Part shown: positions 3,488 to 54,321 of the stretch, piece after piece | How positions within the stretch are numbered: the first letter of the stretch is position 1 | How the letters are laid out: each line of letters starts with the position of its first letter | NCBI GenBank assembly: GCA_965215185.1 | Contig: OZ244034.1 | Coordinates: 1,504,001 to 1,568,000, forward strand | From: Acidimicrobiia bacterium | Lineage (GTDB): Bacteria; Actinomycetota; Acidimicrobiia; Spongiisociales; ZC4RG35 | Length of the DNA stretch: 64,000 bases | Reading direction: 5' to 3' | Notes under the pieces: generated by a model | Told to the model about the DNA's origin: nothing | Databases searched by the model: none | The model's input: only the letters and a program-made list of their open reading frames with translations | Position numbers and translations under genes: made by a program

Positions 3488-4768
3488 TTATACGGTTTCG
3501 CCGTATCCTCGAAAACCAAGCGGATAGGGTGGAAAAGCCGCTGCCAACTCCGCCACCCGCCCGGCGATATCCGCCAAAACGGACTCGTCGTGGCGCTTGC
3601 GGAGGGCTTTCACGATCAGGGATCCCACTTCTCGGGCCTCCGGTTCGTTCATGCCCTGGGAAGTCATGGCGGGAGTCCCGATACGAAGACCCGAGGCCCG
3701 ATAGGGAGGGCGGGGATCGAAGGGAATGGTGTTGAAATTGAGCGTGATACCCACTCGATCCAACAAACGGGCGGCCGTCCGACCGGTGAGATCTTCGGAC
3801 ACCGAGCGGAGATCGATTAGGAACAGATGGTTATCGGTGCCACCCGACACCACCCGGGCTCCGGTCTCTTGCACCGAAGCGCACATGGCCGCGGCGTTGC
3901 GTACGATTTGGGCAGCGTATGACTGGAAGTCGGGAGTGGAGGCCTCCAGGAAGCAGACCGCCTTGGCCGCCACCTGGTTGATGATCGGCCCACCCTGGGT
4001 ATTGGGGAACACCGCCTTGTTGATAGCGGAAGCGTATTCCTCTCTGGCCAACGCCAAACCGCCACGAGGCCCCCGCAAGGCTTTGTGGGTGGTGCCGGTG
4101 ACGATATCAGCGTACGGGACGGGATTGGGGTAGGCCTTGCCGGCCACCAACCCGATGAAATGGGCAGCGTCCACCATGAGGATGGCGCCGACCTCATCGG
4201 CGATTTCACGGAATCCCTGGTAATCGAGGTGTCGGGAATAGGCAGAATATCCTGCCAGGAGTATTTTCGGACGGTGCTGGTGCGCCAGTGATCTCACCTG
4301 GTCCATATCGATCTGCTCGGTGGCAGGGTCCACCCCGTACGCCGCAAAGTCGTAATACAAGCCCGAGAAGTTGACCGGAGACCCGTGAGTGAGGTGCCCG
4401 CCCTGGTCGAGTCGCATTCCGAGCACCGTATCTGAGGGCTTGAGCAGCGAAAAGTAGACGCTCATGTTGGCCTGTGCTCCCGAATGAGGCTGCACATTGG
4501 CCGAATCCGCCCCGAACAGGGCTTTGGCGCGTTCTATGGCCAATGTCTCGATCTCATCCACCACCTGGCAACCTTCGTAGTAGCGACGGCCGGGATAGCC
4601 TTCCGCATACTTGTTGGTGAACACCGATCCGGAAGCGGACATGACCGCCGGCGAGGCAAAATTCTCGGAAGCGATCAGGTGGATGTGGCTGTTCTGGCGC
4701 TCTACGTCGCGGCGAATCAGATCAGCAGCGCGAGGATCCACCTCAGAGAGGGAACGCATATCAATCAT
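3488..4768 (-). CDS. glyA: Serine hydroxymethyltransferase
   Basis: LIASEN, NKYAEGYPGRRYY, GGHLTHG, TTHK(PLP)ALRGPRGG. Confidence 0.98.
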   Translation of the reverse strand: MIDMRSLSEVDPRAADLIRRDVERQNSHIHLIASENFASPAVMSASGSVFTNKYAEGYPGRRYYEGCQVVDEIETLAIERAKALFGADSANVQPHSGAQANMSVYFSLLKPSDTVLGMRLDQGGHLTHGSPVNFSGLYYDFAAYGVDPATEQIDMDQVRSLAHQHRPKILLAGYSAYSRHLDYQGFREIADEVGAILMVDAAHFIGLVAGKAYPNPVPYADIVTGTTHKALRGPRGGLALAREEYASAINKAVFPNTQGGPIINQVAAKAVCFLEASTPDFQSYAAQIVRNAAAMCASVQETGARVVSGGTDNHLFLIDLRSVSEDLTGRTAARLLDRVGITLNFNTIPFDPRPPYRASGLRIGTPAMTSQGMNEPEAREVGSLIVKALRKRHDESVLADIAGRVAELAAAFPPYPLGFRGYGETV

Positions 4769-4856
4769 GGGGAGTCCTTTTTACCGTTTGCCCACACGGT
4801 GGGGATTAGTAACGGCAGGAATTCTACTCTCTAATCCTATCCTTTTAGTTCTGCCC

Positions 4857-5267
4857 TCAAGGCCCCTCCAAAAGGGTCTCGCCAGAGAACCCGTAGGGCA
4901 GCAACTCGGAAAAGGCGTGGACGCGGAAAGCCCCGGCGCCAGCGGCCACCAGCACCGTTTCCACTCCGAATTCGTTCATAATCTGCCGGCAGCAGCCGCA
5001 CGGGTAGGAATCGTCGATGGAGGGAGCGTCGATGCAAGCCACCGCCACTGTATGAACTCTTCGCACCCCCGCCGCCGCGGCGGTATTGACCGCGGTAGCT
5101 TCCGCGCAAATGGAGACCGAATAGGCGGCGTTTTCGACATTGGCGCCGGTGAAAACGGACCCGTCCTCGGCCACCAGAGCCGCTCCGACCCGAAATCGAG
5201 AATAGGGTGAATAGGAGTTCTCAGCGGCGCGGCGCGCCCTTTCCACTAAAGCCCCATGATCGTTCAT
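4857..5267 (-). CDS. cdd: Cytidine deaminase
   Basis: YSPYSRFRVGAA, NVENAAY, CAE and PCGxCRQ zinc motifs. Confidence 0.95.
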   Translation of the reverse strand: MNDHGALVERARRAAENSYSPYSRFRVGAALVAEDGSVFTGANVENAAYSVSICAEATAVNTAAAAGVRRVHTVAVACIDAPSIDDSYPCGCCRQIMNEFGVETVLVAAGAGAFRVHAFSELLPYGFSGETLLEGP

Positions 5268-6229
5268 GTCGGCTCTTCCTCCAGCAGCGCCCGCACGAAT
5301 GTCTCGGCGGAGAATGGAGCCAGATCCGAGAGTGTCTCGCCGGTCCCCACCAGCTTGACGGGCGTGCCCAGACTGCGTTCCACAGCCACAGCCACCCCAC
5401 CCCGGGCGGTTCCGTCCAACTTGGTCAGGACAACGCCGGTCACCCCAACCCGGTCACAGAACTCCCGGGCCTGAGCCAACCCATTCTGGCCCGTGGAAGC
5501 ATCCAGCACCAAAAGCACCTCGTCCACCTTCCCTGCCGCCTCGGCCAACACCCGCTTGATCTTCTGCAACTGACTCATCAAATGCGTCTTGGAATGCAGC
5601 CGTCCGGCGGTGTCGATCACCACCACCTCATGACCCCGGCTCTTCGCCGCCGACCAGGCGTCGCGGGCCACCGCCGCAGGATCGGCGCCTTCTTTTCCAC
5701 CCACCATCTCCACTCCCATCAACTCCGCCCAAATCTCCAGTTGACGCTGGGCGGCCGGACGGTAGGTGTCCGCCGCGCCCAGCAGGCATTTTTTGTCGCT
5801 GCTGGACAACAGGTGGACGATCTTGGCCGCAGTGGTCGTCTTGCCCGCTCCGTTGACCCCCACCACCATCACCACCCGCGGGGACCCGTTGCCGGACCAC
5901 TCCAAACTGCGATCTCGATCGCCGAATAGCGCCAGCATCTCCTCAGCCAGAATCGCCCGGGCTGCAGCGCGGTCATCGGGCTTTCCTTCGCGGACTGCGG
6001 CGACCAGCTGAGTGGAGATATCCACCCCTATGTCGGCTGCCACCAGCGCCTCCTCCAAACCATTCCAGAAGTTGTCGTCGAGACGCTCGCCGCCCGCCAT
6101 CGACCGAAACATCCCCCACAAGGCATCTCGAGTTTTGGACATGGCGGATACGGTCGGATCCACCGAAGATGGTGATCCTTTCAGAGCAGAGGCGCCACGC
6201 CTCTTCCACCAGCCCGTTAGCCATCCCAC
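5264..6229 (-). CDS. ftsY: Signal recognition particle receptor FtsY
   Basis: GVNGAGKTTT, DTYRPAA, DTAGR, TKLDGTARGG; GTG at 6229 lies 7 nt after a TAAGCT -10-like hexamer (possibly leaderless; start uncertain). Confidence 0.95.
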   Translation of the reverse strand: MGWLTGWWKRRGASALKGSPSSVDPTVSAMSKTRDALWGMFRSMAGGERLDDNFWNGLEEALVAADIGVDISTQLVAAVREGKPDDRAAARAILAEEMLALFGDRDRSLEWSGNGSPRVVMVVGVNGAGKTTTAAKIVHLLSSSDKKCLLGAADTYRPAAQRQLEIWAELMGVEMVGGKEGADPAAVARDAWSAAKSRGHEVVVIDTAGRLHSKTHLMSQLQKIKRVLAEAAGKVDEVLLVLDASTGQNGLAQAREFCDRVGVTGVVLTKLDGTARGGVAVAVERSLGTPVKLVGTGETLSDLAPFSAETFVRALLEEEPT

Positions 6230-49921: not shown

Positions 49922-50665
49922 ATGAACTTGTCCAGGACCCTCCGTTGCGGGCTGTCAATCGCCGGACTGACGGTGGTTTTCCTCTTCTTTGTCGCCGCTT
50001 GTGGAGGGGAATCCACCCCCGCTCCCGTGCCAGACGTTGATTTGGGCGAATTGCTTTCCAGTGCGGGAGAGAAAATGGCTGCCATGTCGACGGCGAAATT
50101 CAGCATGATCGACGAAAAGGAATCGGGAGCCAAGTTCTTTGGGACAACTTTCAAGAGCATGGAAACAGAAGTAGAGGCTCCCGACAGCTTCAGGATGGTG
50201 GTGGACGTGGAGGCGCCGGGTTTTGGATTTGTGGAGATCGAAATGTTGGCGGTCGGAGACCAGGCCTACATGAAGCTCTCCAAGGACGCGCCGTGGAACC
50301 CCTTGCCCTTGGACCAAGTGCCTTTCAATTTCGCGGGGTTGGGCTTCACCTTGCGCGATCTGCTTACCACGATCAAGGACGGCGCCACCATTACTGGCCG
50401 GGAGTCCGTGCTGGACACCCAGACCATTCGGGTTGAGGCGAACCTTGTTTCTGACCAGTTGTCATCCCTCCTCTCGACCGTGGATTCGGGTCACGCGGTG
50501 GCCTTGACCTTGTGGATTGACGAAACCGAACACGCTTTGCGGCAGATAAAGATCGCGGGCCGCATCTACGACGACGACGCCCCGGAAACCATCCGTATTC
50601 TAACCATTGTTGGTATTGACGTTCCTGTCGACATCCAACTTCCGGATGTCGGATCCGGGTCGTGA
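49922..50665 (+). CDS. LppX/LprAFG-family lipoprotein
   Basis: Lipobox VAAC, LWIDE, C-terminal PVDIQLP; overlaps the MFS start. Confidence 0.75.
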   Translation: MNLSRTLRCGLSIAGLTVVFLFFVAACGGESTPAPVPDVDLGELLSSAGEKMAAMSTAKFSMIDEKESGAKFFGTTFKSMETEVEAPDSFRMVVDVEAPGFGFVEIEMLAVGDQAYMKLSKDAPWNPLPLDQVPFNFAGLGFTLRDLLTTIKDGATITGRESVLDTQTIRVEANLVSDQLSSLLSTVDSGHAVALTLWIDETEHALRQIKIAGRIYDDDAPETIRILTIVGIDVPVDIQLPDVGSGS

Positions 50666-52137
50666 GCGGCGTTAGGAATCGTCTCGCCTCCCTGGGTTCT
50701 TCCGAGTCGGTTGTATTAGGAATTCTTTGCCTGGGAGTATTCTCGACCGCCTTGGATCAGACCGTGGTAGTCGCCGCGTTGCCTGGCGTAATGGTGGATT
50801 TGGAGATCCCCCTCACGGACCTGGACAGGGCGTCTTGGATCGTAACCGGGTATCTGGTGGCCTATACCGTGGCCATGCCATTGGGCGGGCGCCTGTCCGA
50901 TGTCCACGGCCGGGTCAAGATGTTCCAAGTGGCCTTGGTCGTGTTCTCCGTCGGATCGGCGTTCGTGGCGCTGGCGCCGAATTTCGGTTGGATTGTTTCC
51001 GCCAGGGTGGTCCAAGCTATTGGGGGAGGCGCCACGGTCCCCATCGGTCTGGCCATGGCAGTGGCAGCCGTATCGTCGCAGAGAAGGGGAATTGCCATAG
51101 GACTGGTGGCGGCGGCTGCTGAAGCCGGGTCCGTCTTGGGCCCTCTTTATGGAGGCGCCATTATCGAGTTGCTCGGCTGGCGGTGGATATTCTGGCTGGA
51201 CATACCCCAGAGCCTCATTCTTATCGCGCTTCTGGCCATCTTGCCGAACCGCGCCAATCCGAAGGCCAAGATGGACTACTTGGGGGCGTTGGTGATGGGA
51301 GGGGCACTCATCTTTCTAACCGCGGGGCTGTCCCAGAGGGGCCTCTTCTCCGCAACTTCTGTTTTCCCGTATCTGCTGGTGGCCGTGGGAGCACTTCTGG
51401 TCGCCGCATTGGTCGTCCTTGAACGACGCACGGATCAGCCTCTGTTGGCCCCTTTCCTGTACAGGTCCAGGGCGTTCCTGTCCTCCAACTGCACCCAGTT
51501 CCTGGTGGGTGTGGCCTTGATCATTGCTTTGGTATCCGTGCCCCTCATGGCAGGCACCGTCATGGAGAGGACGGGATTGGAGAGTGTCCTCTACTTGCTT
51601 CGCCTTACCGTCGCCATTCCGGTGGGGGCGGTGGTGGGAGGCTACATCCTTCGCTGGGCTGGAGTGCGATCGGTGTGTGTTACGGGCCTGGTGTTGATGG
51701 GAACGGGCCTGTTGTTCATGAGTGGTTGGGAGACGCAGGTGGAGGAACTGAGGCTGACCTTGCCCTTGGTATCGGCGGGTCTGGGATTCGGGCTGGTCAT
51801 CCCTCCTATTGGCGTCAGTGCTCTGAGCGCTTCGCCTAGTAATTATTGGGGCGCGGCGGCCTCTTTGGTCACAGCCTCGCGAATGGTGGGGATGGCGTTG
51901 GGGCTGGCCGCCTTGTCCGCTTGGGGCATAGAGCGCTTCTACAGCCTGACTGGCGACTTCGAGCTTGGACCGTCGTTCGAAGAGACCGAGGCAGTGTTGA
52001 TAGGCGCCGGCGTCACCGTGTTTCAGAACCTCTTCATGATCACGGGGGTTCTTTCCCTATTGGCCATCCTGCCGGCCCTGCTGATAAGAGAAGAACATGT
52101 CGAAGAAGACACATTTACCAACGAAGAGAGCCAGTAA
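50662..52137 (+). CDS. DHA2-type (about 14 TM) MFS transporter, P55/Rv1410c-like
   Basis: ALDQTVVVAALP, WIVTGYL, GRLSDVHGR, ARVVQAIGGG, GPLYG, WRWIFW. Confidence 0.9.
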   Translation: MSGVRNRLASLGSSESVVLGILCLGVFSTALDQTVVVAALPGVMVDLEIPLTDLDRASWIVTGYLVAYTVAMPLGGRLSDVHGRVKMFQVALVVFSVGSAFVALAPNFGWIVSARVVQAIGGGATVPIGLAMAVAAVSSQRRGIAIGLVAAAAEAGSVLGPLYGGAIIELLGWRWIFWLDIPQSLILIALLAILPNRANPKAKMDYLGALVMGGALIFLTAGLSQRGLFSATSVFPYLLVAVGALLVAALVVLERRTDQPLLAPFLYRSRAFLSSNCTQFLVGVALIIALVSVPLMAGTVMERTGLESVLYLLRLTVAIPVGAVVGGYILRWAGVRSVCVTGLVLMGTGLLFMSGWETQVEELRLTLPLVSAGLGFGLVIPPIGVSALSASPSNYWGAAASLVTASRMVGMALGLAALSAWGIERFYSLTGDFELGPSFEETEAVLIGAGVTVFQNLFMITGVLSLLAILPALLIREEHVEEDTFTNEESQ

Positions 52138-52180
52138 TCGAAGGGACTTATATACCTAGGTTGACAACCAGCCACCCCTT

Positions 52181-53533
52181 TTGTCGCAGGGGTGGGATAT
52201 TTTTAGGATCGTGGTTCCTTGGGTGCAGACGATCCGGCTGAAAGGGCATTGTTCCCGCTCGGCGCACCGTCGTTTGGATGACATCTTCGCGCAGTGTTGC
52301 GAGTTGTATAACGCATGCCTGGAATCATGGAAGGGCACATACCGGTGGTGGAAAGAACACCATCCCGACGAACCCCTTCCCCTAGAACTGAATCAGTCTC
52401 ACTATGACCGTCTGCGGATGTTCACCGATGTACGCAAGGACCATCCTGAGTGGCAGCGTTTGAGCCTTCGAGTGGGGCGCGGAACGTTGCGCCGCTTCGA
52501 CCGGTCTATTCAGGCCTTTTATAAGAGATGTAAGGACCCTTCCAAGAAGGCGGGGTTTCCCCGGTTCAAGCCGCGTCACCGGTGGAAGTCGATAGAGATT
52601 GTGAACGCTGACCGCGGGATGCTCAAAGCTCCGGGAGAGAGAAAGAACCACAGCGAGAAGTGGTGGAGACTACAGGTGAAGGGCGTGCCGTAGATACGGT
52701 TTGAGGACAAACACGACCGCCTCACTACCGCGTTGGAGAGCGGCCGGCTGGTGGAACTGCGAGTGGCCCGCACTCCTCTGCGAGTCGAGATACATGCGGT
52801 CATCAAGCACCCTGACCGCCCACCGGTGGCAGATCCGGTCAATCCCGTCGGTTTGGACAAGGGGCTCAAGTCACGCCTGGTCACTTCCGACGGCGAACAC
52901 CTACCACCCACAACCGTGGATCTGCGACAGGTGTTGCGCGCTCAGCGCCGGTTCAGCAGGTCCGTCAAGGGATCACGGTCTCGCATCAAGAAGCGCAACC
53001 ATCTCGCTAAACAGCACCGCCGCCTACAGGAACAGGCCATCCAGTCGGACTTCCGCCTGGCCGACCGCCTGGTCAAGGCCTACGACGGCATAGCTGCCGA
53101 AAAGCTCAATATCGCCCGACTGCTGAAAACCAAGCTGTTCTCCAAACAGATGTCACAGCAACGCTGGGGATCCTTCGATCTCATACTGGAACACAAAGCC
53201 GCGAAAGCTGGTATCCGGTATGCGGGAGTAAACCCCAGCCACACCTCCACCGACTGTTCCCGATGCGGGCATCACCAAAAGATGCCCCTCAACGTGAGAA
53301 CCTTCCGGTGCGAACAGTGTGGACTGACCATGTGCAGAGACCACAATGCTGCAATCAACGTATGCGCCCGAGGCTATCCCACCTGGGATCCTTGGGGTCG
53401 GGTGGGACATGACCTCGTGTTTCCCGACGCGGTGCGCTCTACAAATCTCTGTTGTAAGACATCTTTCGGCTCAGGCCGGAAGATGCTGGCAGACACCGCA
53501 GAACAGTATCACCTAGACGCTCCGTCAACCTAG
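52181..53533 (+). pseudogene. tnpB: TnpB RNA-guided endonuclease, interrupted by one in-frame TAG (52691-52693)
   Basis: ELYNACLE, GFPRFK, RuvC-I VGLDKG, RuvC-II AAEKL, zinc finger CSRC/CEQC, RuvC-III RDHNAAIN; both track ORFs are in one frame; true start may be GTG 52211 or 52223. Confidence 0.9.
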
Positions 53534-53546
53534 GTATATAAGTCCC
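53390..53546 (+). ncRNA. Predicted TnpB omegaRNA scaffold overlapping the tnpB 3' end and right TIR
   Basis: Stems GTCGGG/CCCGAC, GCGGTG/CACCGC, CATCTTTCGGC/GCCGGAAGATG, ACCTAG/CTAGGT; position typical of TnpB reRNAs; boundaries inferred. Confidence 0.6.
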
Positions 53547-53676
53547 TAATCGAAACTGGTCTGTAACGGCGCCCAAGCATACGAAGAAACCTCGTCAATA
53601 GCGGTGTACTGCCACGCCGCACCCTTCCCACCACGGAGGCTTCCCCACTCCCGCCCTCTCCCCTATTCCGACAATA

Positions 53677-54321
53677 TCAAGGAGCGAGCCGTTCCACCAC
53701 CCAGCCACCGTCCAGCAACCGATACTCGAAGCGATCATGGAACCGGTTCGGCCTGCCCTGCCAGAACTCGTAGCAATCCGTCACCATGCGATAGCCGCCC
53801 CACCCGGTAGGGCGAGGAACATCCCCGTCGGGATACTGTCGCCATAGTTCTGCCATCCGTTCCTCCAGCCAGGCCCGGTCGGGCACCGCCTGGCTTTGTG
53901 GAGAGACAACCGCACTCAAACGTGAGCCGGGGGGACGGGACCGGAAATACGCGTCGGACTGCTCGCTGGAGATCTTCTCCACCCGGCCCCCCACCCGCAC
54001 CTGTCGATGAAGCGGCAGCCACAAGAAGACCCCGGCCGCACGAGGGTTCTCGGCCAGTTCCGAACCCTTGCGGCTTTGGTAGTTGGTGTAGAAAACGATC
54101 CCCTGCCGATTGGTTTCCCTCATCAACACCGTCCGCGCCGAGGGTCCGGCATCCCGGCCGGCGGTGGCCAGGATGAAGGCGTGGGGCTCCTGCAATCCCG
54201 CTTCCAACGCCTCTGAGAACCAGCGGGCGAACAACTCGGACGGATCAGCGGGCAGATCAGACCGGGACAGCCCTGCGCTCTCATAGTCGGTGCGAAGGGT
54301 GCGGAGGCGCTCTTGGTCCAT
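53677..54321 (-). CDS. pdxH: Pyridoxamine 5'-phosphate oxidase
   Basis: FYTNYQSRKG, RQVRVGG, YFRSRP, EFWQGRPNRFHDR, C-terminal RLAP. Confidence 0.96.
   Translation of the reverse strand: MDQERLRTLRTDYESAGLSRSDLPADPSELFARWFSEALEAGLQEPHAFILATAGRDAGPSARTVLMRETNRQGIVFYTNYQSRKGSELAENPRAAGVFLWLPLHRQVRVGGRVEKISSEQSDAYFRSRPPGSRLSAVVSPQSQAVPDRAWLEERMAELWRQYPDGDVPRPTGWGGYRMVTDCYEFWQGRPNRFHDRFEYRLLDGGWVVERLAP

Follow-up and report, generated by a model that had tools for sequence, protein, structure and literature searches.

In the genome of an Acidimicrobiia bacterium (assembly GCA_965215185.1), a tnpB gene lies between transposon ends of the IS1595 type. The window analyzed here is the whole stretch of 64,000 nucleotides from contig OZ244034.1 (positions 1,504,001 to 1,568,000), and the element occupies positions 52143-53546 of this window. 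It is a 1404-bp unit with perfect 23-nt terminal inverted repeats (TIRs), an exact 8-bp target site duplication (TSD), and tnpB as the sole cargo. Very probably, this unit is a non-autonomous IS1595 mobile insertion cassette that carries tnpB together with an omega-RNA and was moved in trans, the copy in the window being recent but dead. An earlier interpretation made from the nucleotide letters, herein referred to as the sequence-only reading, is supported, and the feature itself is real and cleanly defined.

Terminal Repeats and Target Site Duplication

The TIR pattern was found twice in the window, with 0 matches expected from 100 dinucleotide-preserving shuffles; the same pattern read backwards, used as a control, had 0 matches. 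The repeat search returned arms of 24 nt because one base of the adjoining TSD pairs by chance. The division into 23 and 8 nucleotides is backed by comparison across the family copies. Both structural claims of the sequence-only reading hold. The 1404-bp unit has perfect 23-bp TIRs (0 mismatches, 0 occurrences in the shuffles), and the exact 8-bp duplication, TAATCGAA, starts on the TAA stop codon of a 491-aa open reading frame (ORF) for a transporter of the major facilitator superfamily (MFS). Because perfect 23-nt TIRs and an 8-bp TSD are present, the definition of the IS200/IS605 family is not applicable: the unit is not a member of this family as a transposon, though its cargo is the accessory gene of that family.

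Copies in the Same Genome

The genome of the window, G000, is a single contig of 3.12 Mb with 60.7% G+C. At up to five mismatches to the TIR, 22 end-like sites were found in this genome, forming eight pairs and six solo ends. Four of the eight pairs are flanked by exact 8-bp TSDs, all of them different (ACAGAAAA, TAATCGAA, ATTGTTTA, and TAAAGGAG); among the remaining pairs, one has a 7/8 TSD match and three have no duplication. The solo ends at 472261, 473159, and 2060219 adjoin ordinary host ORFs, with no transposase beside them. Copies E5 and E6, respectively 98% and 92% identical to the window copy, are frameshifted; E4 has an internal deletion, and E8 is a miniature inverted-repeat transposable element (MITE) of 114 bp. 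The tnpB frames are open in E3 and E7 (468 and 482 codons, respectively, counted from stop to stop).

IS1595 Transposases With Matching Ends

IS1595 is a family of insertion sequences with an ISXO2-like DDE transposase and the prokaryotic relative of the eukaryotic Merlin elements; in its ISNwi1 subgroup, the ends read 'ggnnatTAT', the repeats are of 8 bp, and passenger genes occur. The ends of the window element presumably fall into this subgroup. The TIRs are common to five elements with DDE_Tnp_IS1595-type transposases (L105, L135, L136, L137, and L138), the 8-bp length of the window TSD is that of the family, and no transposase gene was found within the window unit itself. The first of these five elements, 1866 bp in length and flanked by the TSD CAAAAAAT, has an ORF with DDE_Tnp_IS1595 (E = 2e-41) and Zn_ribbon_IS1595 domains; elements of this type were found in a metagenome-assembled genome (MAG) of Bryobacteraceae and in matching metagenome contigs. 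The other four elements are complete, and each has an ORF for a transposase of the IS1595 type (Table 1); the transposase was confirmed by Pfam for L135 and L136. The end of L135 equals the right end of E3 at 21 of the 23 positions.

Matches to PF12762 were found in 8 of the 17 genomes of the genus, including G000, and in 4 of the 5 distant genomes with TIR-bounded TnpBs. In one of the Caldilineaceae genomes (G041), the transposase-bearing element ends with GGGAATTATATACCTGTGTACAC and the TnpB elements end with GGGACTTATATACCTAAGTACAC.

Near-identical ends and exact 8-bp TSDs thus flank transposases with DDE_Tnp_IS1595 and Zn_ribbon_IS1595 domains, and therefore the IS1595 assignment of the sequence-only reading is right: the ends belong to this family. 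The autonomous partner that it called for was found in sister genomes and elsewhere; in G000, this expectation was borne out only by transposase fragments, with open frames of 96 aa and 84 aa.

Methylase genes were observed as passengers in four of the transposase-bearing elements: L135 (2208-3704), L136 (1312-2670), L137 (1518-2537), and L152 (2527-3561). According to Pfam, N6_N4_Mtase is fused to an HNH or Mrr_cat nuclease domain in the first three, and the methylase domain alone was matched in L152.

The tnpB Gene and the Omega-RNA-Like Scaffold

An in-frame TAG codon divides tnpB of the window into pieces of 170 aa and 266 aa. The same codon encodes glutamine (Q) in the copies E5 and E6, and therefore the window tnpB is a pseudogene. 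The motifs GLDKG, AAEKLN, RDHNAAIN, and CxxC...CxxC are still legible in its translation. Both the C-terminal piece and the intact protein of E3 were matched by OrfB_IS605 (PF01385) and Cas12f1-like_TNB (PF07282), in agreement with the earlier identification of the cargo as tnpB. The protein of E3 also matches the structure chains of ISDra2 TnpB (E = 3.6e-23). The sequence-only reading described the gene as intact, and this part has to be corrected: the RuvC and zinc-finger motifs are readable, but the D-E-D reading frame is broken by the TAG codon in the window, being uninterrupted in E3 and E7.

Among 13 diverged copies (alignment A1), the terminal ~200 nt show strong nucleotide conservation despite the differing frame. 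For this region, RNAalifold gave a structure of 33 pairs in six helices, with compensatory double changes in 17 of the pairs. In the window, the six helices cover positions 53350-53499 and are followed by the unpaired conserved AGAACAGTATCACC, ~10 variable bases, and the TIR; the scaffold abuts the TIR in all 13 aligned copies. The paired cells amount to 89.9% on the conserved structure versus 29-44% after the partners were slid by 1-3 columns, and the pairs with double changes to 17 versus 3-8. Among 500 shuffles, none reached the observed value on four of the five measures and four did so on the fifth, all of these comparisons favoring the structure to some degree, as it was derived from the same sequences that were used for testing. 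The alignment points to a covarying, omega-RNA-like structure that overlaps the 3' end of tnpB and reaches the end of the transposon. Among public RNA runs, none was listed as containing the element. The right TIR would also be the 3' end of the guide-RNA scaffold, and the guide, if TnpB is taken as a model, would begin at the right end or just past it.

Unoccupied Insertion Site

Contigs of four public DNA runs from one study, two of which (X1 and X3) represent the same sample, were compared with positions 51400-54300 of the window. A joint of position 52134 to position 53547 was found in three of the four runs at depths of 3, 10.6, and 7.7. This joint skips 1412 bases, i.e., the 1404 bp of the element plus 8 bp, and the eight letters at it fit either side. 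An exact unoccupied site with a single TAATCGAA, as sought under the sequence-only reading, is therefore present in public DNA. Since both filled and empty forms occur in the runs, the insertion is polymorphic in the sampled population and, as that reading had also proposed, probably recent.

At positions 53488-54300, one contig of run X2 leads from the right flank through the right TIR into a scaffold that is unlike that of the window and resembles the G011-type copies. This contig suggests a variant or recombinant element at the same site in some cells.

Distribution of TIR-Bounded tnpB Genes

Within the genus, the TIR occurs in 6 of the 16 genomes other than G000; none of the 24 more distant relatives sampled has it. 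Genome G011 has about ten near-identical copies. An element of 1902 bp in G007, which shares the ends of the window element and has the TSD TTGCTTTA, carries a different TnpB-like protein of 627 aa. The public collections were scanned with the terminal 19-mer, with two degenerate positions allowed; some of the resulting loci overlap. The 19-mer was found at 54 genome loci and 20 metagenome loci and is adjoined by a TnpB-like ORF at 40 and 4 of them, respectively. Some of the single matches are probably due to chance. Judged by the record titles, the hosts include Acidimicrobiia, several Caldilineaceae, a Proteobacteria MAG, 'Ca. Foliamicus', and a Nitrosopumilus MAG with a TIR-bounded element flanked by the TSD AATCAATT. 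Taking all gathered loci together, 33 unique elements have an 8-bp TSD at no more than one mismatch. Further copies of tnpB that have these TIRs but other 8-bp TSDs, as sought under the sequence-only reading, thus exist both in G000 and in other genomes.

The best relatives of the E3 protein in 300 further genomes of the class are only 29-39% identical, and no convincing end motif was found in the 17 loci taken from them. A tree was built for 18 TIR-bounded and 13 TIR-less TnpBs; it does not include pseudogene copies or the four fragments of less than 330 aa. The E3 clade is sister to six TIR-less TnpBs of Acidimicrobiia (Shimodaira-Hasegawa-like approximate likelihood ratio test, 95) and stands apart from the group formed by Caldilineaceae, Foliamicus, and large TnpBs. 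The best tree requires two changes between the TIR-bounded and TIR-less states, and a single TIR-bounded clade was not rejected by the approximately unbiased test (p = 0.052). This topology suggests that TnpB may have been captured repeatedly by these ends.

In the Nitrosopumilus MAG, a TnpB-like ORF (locus L149, 4243-5361, minus strand) is located within inverted repeats of ~26 nt, GGTTCTGTTGGGTTAACGGGTGTTGA and its complement, which delimit positions ~4215-5535. The IS1595 transposase gene at this locus and the neighboring TnpB-like ORF were considered as one element of the present end family; this candidate was rejected because the TnpB has different 26-nt repeats.

One-Sided G Beside the Duplication

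Of the 33 elements with a TSD, the RNA-end motif provided an orientation for 20, which correspond to 19 independent insertions because two of them share a site. Three more were oriented by the TnpB ORF, which gives 22 independent insertions, and five unoriented MITEs were omitted. Of the 22 insertions, 21, including that of the window (position 52134), have a G directly 5' of the TSD on the tnpB-upstream side. The mirror-image pattern, a C directly 3' of the TSD on the other side, was observed in ~4 of 22. The first base of the TSD is A or T in 21 cases out of 22, mostly followed by AA. The same G bias was found in short derivatives without tnpB; in the five transposase-bearing elements, G stands at that place on only 1 of 10 sides.

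The one-sided G may represent a transposon-adjacent motif (TAM); alternatively, it may reflect an asymmetric transpososome. The empty site consists of G, the duplication, and the right flank. At the occupied right junction, the same sequence is preceded by C, because the element ends with ...GTCCC. It is conceivable, though we are inclined to doubt it, that a functional coupling, beyond mere linkage, exists between TnpB and the IS1595 ends. In such a case, G would be the TAM or belong to a G-WAAA TAM, and the guide would be taken from the duplication together with the right flank; the occupied site would be shielded by the terminal C of the right end, and the empty site would be cut. Such coupling would amount to a homing or retention mechanism suited to a prokaryotic DDE transposon that makes duplications. 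Its range would extend over bacterial phyla and reach archaea, and TnpBs may have been captured more than once.

Proposed Mobilization in Trans and Alternative Explanations

For the IS1595 cassette, the following mechanism is proposed. The sole cargo would be tnpB and the omega-RNA encoded at its 3' end. As suggested by the anatomy of the unit and by the partners found, an IS1595 transposase made elsewhere would bind the 23-nt TIRs and insert the unit through an 8-bp staggered cut. By analogy with TnpB and Fanzor, the intact form would yield a TnpB-omegaRNA nuclease with a guide from the DNA just outside the right end, and this nuclease could cleave those copies of its insertion site that the element does not occupy. 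The window copy is a probably recent insertion, already dead and stranded because of the nonsense codon in tnpB and because only transposase fragments are present in the genome.

Several observations weigh against this mechanism. No sampled element has a transposase and tnpB inside one pair of ends. In the genus, TnpB elements were found in seven genomes, and an intact IS1595 transposase is present in only one of these (G007). Neither the Pfam model nor the transposase query from the genus itself detected any transposase in G011, which is ~95% complete and has about ten copies. In G015, nothing was found with the genus query, and the one weak Pfam match lies below the curated cut-off and contains TGA. 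The genomes G005, G009, G013, and G016 have intact transposases and are devoid of the window TIR at up to three mismatches. Furthermore, positions 52100-53620 had no Rfam match with an E value of 1 or lower. The joint at the unoccupied site has only 22 letters on its shorter side, and the four runs share a single study. The missing partners may be explained by transposase loss in the wake of a burst or by location of the partner on an unbinned replicon; for G011, such a partner could possibly reside on a plasmid or an unbinned replicon.

The alternative that survives best, improbable as we consider it, is that the unit is moved not by an IS1595 transposase but by TnpB itself, with its RNase-H-like RuvC fold, or by some other enzyme making an 8-bp staggered insertion. 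Such a mover would fit the near-identical copies in G011 with no detectable IS1595 transposase, the lack of elements co-encoding transposase and TnpB, and the different insertion sites of tnpB-bearing and transposase-bearing elements. However, the ends and the TSD length equal those of true IS1595 elements, and TSDs are found around MITE derivatives devoid of tnpB as well. The transposase fragments kept in G000, G002, G003, and G004 point to loss after a burst. TnpB as the mover is further disfavored by its dispensability for transposition in the studied IS605 elements.

Even less credit is given to a single landing of an IS200/IS605-type tnpB unit in a pre-existing MITE, by which the TIRs and tnpB would be unrelated. 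The tnpB ORF starts only ~15 nt from the left TIR, and its stop codon (53531-53533) falls within the right TIR; the RNA scaffold runs directly into the TIR in all the aligned copies, and the same junction is found with very different TnpBs in other phyla. The MITE-sized relatives without tnpB (114 bp in G000, 169-530 bp elsewhere) could be taken in favor of such a landing, but the short MITEs keep the tnpB-side RNA end and look like deletion derivatives. The sequence-only reading named two findings that would refute its own interpretation, a one-off insertion into a pre-existing MITE with close TnpB homologues having ordinary IS200/IS605 ends, and TIRs shared with no transposase-bearing element. 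Neither was observed: the TnpB relatives with these ends proved to be many and diverse, and transposase-bearing elements do share the ends. Finally, nothing was found in favor of paired repeats and a duplication produced by chance or by misassembly, which is a negligible prospect given the absence of matches in the shuffles and for the reversed pattern, the recurrence of the structure in independent assemblies and metagenome contigs, and the presence of both filled and empty forms in public runs.

Relation to Known TnpB-Carrying Elements

Six DDE-linked branches of TnpB, DDE-1 to DDE-6, all with inverted terminal repeats, have been described together with solo TnpBs that have the same ends and were taken as mobilized in trans (Altae-Tran et al., 2023, PNAS, PMC10691335). 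In these elements, the 3' end of tnpB lies within 250 bp of the transposon end; the only family named in the main text is IS630, for DDE-6 (PMC10691335). A 2026 review lists ISL2, IS630, and IS1031 as the DDE families with TnpB (PMC13565253). Like these branches, the window element has a prokaryotic TnpB inside an inverted-repeat transposon; unlike them, transposase and tnpB never share an element in the present sample. Because prokaryotic TnpBs residing in TIR/DDE transposons and mobilized in trans had been published in 2023 (PMC10691335), the parallel to Fanzors drawn in the sequence-only reading is not a new concept. Neither IS1595 nor 8-bp duplications are mentioned in the covered parts of the two sources, which do not extend to the supplementary branch definitions (PMC10691335; PMC13565253). 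In the literature searched, no paper was found that links TnpB with IS1595, ISXO2, or DDE_Tnp_IS1595. The IS1595 link thus appears to be a new addition to the published concept.

The window element shares with the IS1595 family the ends beginning with GGGAMTTAT, the 8-bp TSD, and partners that carry DDE_Tnp_IS1595, Zn_ribbon_IS1595, and passenger genes; it differs in having no transposase and in its passenger, tnpB with a putative guide RNA. Similarity to the tnpB-only IS1341 group of IS200/IS605 lies in tnpB as the single gene with an omega-RNA at its 3' end. In contrast to the perfect TIRs and the 8-bp TSD found here, IS200/IS605 elements have no TIRs and no TSD and are characterized by subterminal hairpins and the Y1 transposase TnpA (PMC13565253).

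In Fanzor1 and Fanzor2* transposons, the scaffold has been predicted to include the TSD; the sequenced RNAs of expressed Fanzor1 extend ~15 nt past the TSD (Yoon et al., 2023, NAR, PMC10711439). Common to these systems and the window element are a TnpB-type nuclease as cargo of a cut-and-paste transposon, a TIR at the presumed 3' end of the guide RNA, and putative independent captures; the Fanzor elements are eukaryotic or viral, whereas the window element is prokaryotic. Fanzors in eukaryotic and viral transposons with TIRs and TSDs were reportedly described by Bao and Jurka in 2013.

These data add a widespread DDE family, IS1595, to the few prokaryotic transposons known to carry TnpB. As a case it is unusually clean, combining exact ends, many independent TSDs, partner elements, a covarying scaffold of the putative guide RNA, and an empty allele. 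It bears on the question raised in the review of what use an RNA-guided nuclease may have for a cut-and-paste transposon, as the latter leaves a double-strand break anyway (PMC13565253). The one-sided G next to the TSD is the most interesting loose end, providing a testable handle on this question. The intact relatives are predicted to be compact TnpBs of at most ~470-480 codons with defined RNA ends and could be of interest for genome editing.

Features of the Window and Rearranged Copies

Table 1. Features of the element and its flanks in the window, followed by complete transposase-bearing elements from other genomes.
Feature	Position	Strand	Description
MFS transporter gene, 491-aa ORF	50662-52137	+	MFS_1 (E = 6e-42); intact despite the insertion
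Left TSD copy	52135-52142		TAATCGAA; first three bases are the MFS stop codon
Left TIR	52143-52165	+	GGGACTTATATACCTAGGTTGAC; IS1595-type end; same end adjoins IS1595 transposase genes elsewhere
tnpB pseudogene, ~450 codons	52181-53533	+	In-frame TAG at 52691-52693; RuvC and zinc-finger motifs otherwise readable
Omega-RNA-like scaffold	53350-53523	+	Alignment A1, RNAalifold; coordinates mapped from A1 columns
Right TIR	53524-53546	-	Perfect complement of left TIR, 0 mismatches
Right TSD copy	53547-53554		TAATCGAA
Pyridoxamine 5'-phosphate oxidase gene	53677-54321	-	Downstream flank, convergent with the MFS gene
Element L135, genome G009			2746 bp; TSD ATAACTAA; end GGGAATTACATACTTGGGTAGAC
Element L136, genome G007			2924 bp; TSD TTACGTTT; end begins GGGAATTATATACC
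Element L137, genome G009			2908 bp; TSD CAAACATT; end begins GGGAATTATATA
Element L138, genome G013			3501 bp; TSD CAACGAAA; end begins GAGAATTATATACC

Outside the window, the copy E1 (G000:C1:952908-956420; L016 1001-4513) has the same TIRs and the exact TSD ACAGAAAA and is 3513 bp in length. It retains mere remnants of the 5' and 3' ends of tnpB, and its cargo consists of three minus-strand ORFs of 640, 170, and 253 aa, for which no curated-level Pfam match and no PADLOC match were found. A second copy of the 640-aa gene is located at 1955727-1957697 (78% nucleotide identity), and a direct repeat of 1052 bp (85% identity) borders E1 on either side. The genome is very repeat-rich: when it was compared with itself, 171 merged repeated intervals were found at a minimum of 300 bp and 80% identity.

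Several copies, including E5 (G000 1882825-1884228), have no matching duplications, and the G011 loci L052 and L089 have an identical right flank. Both observations are consistent with inversion or recombination between copies. At one site, with the TSD AAAGATTA, shared by G002 (L062) and G004 (L070), a full 1403-bp element was found in one of the two genomes and a 530-bp deletion derivative in the other, the G004 copy having AAGGATTA on one side. This pair shows how a MITE originates by deletion.

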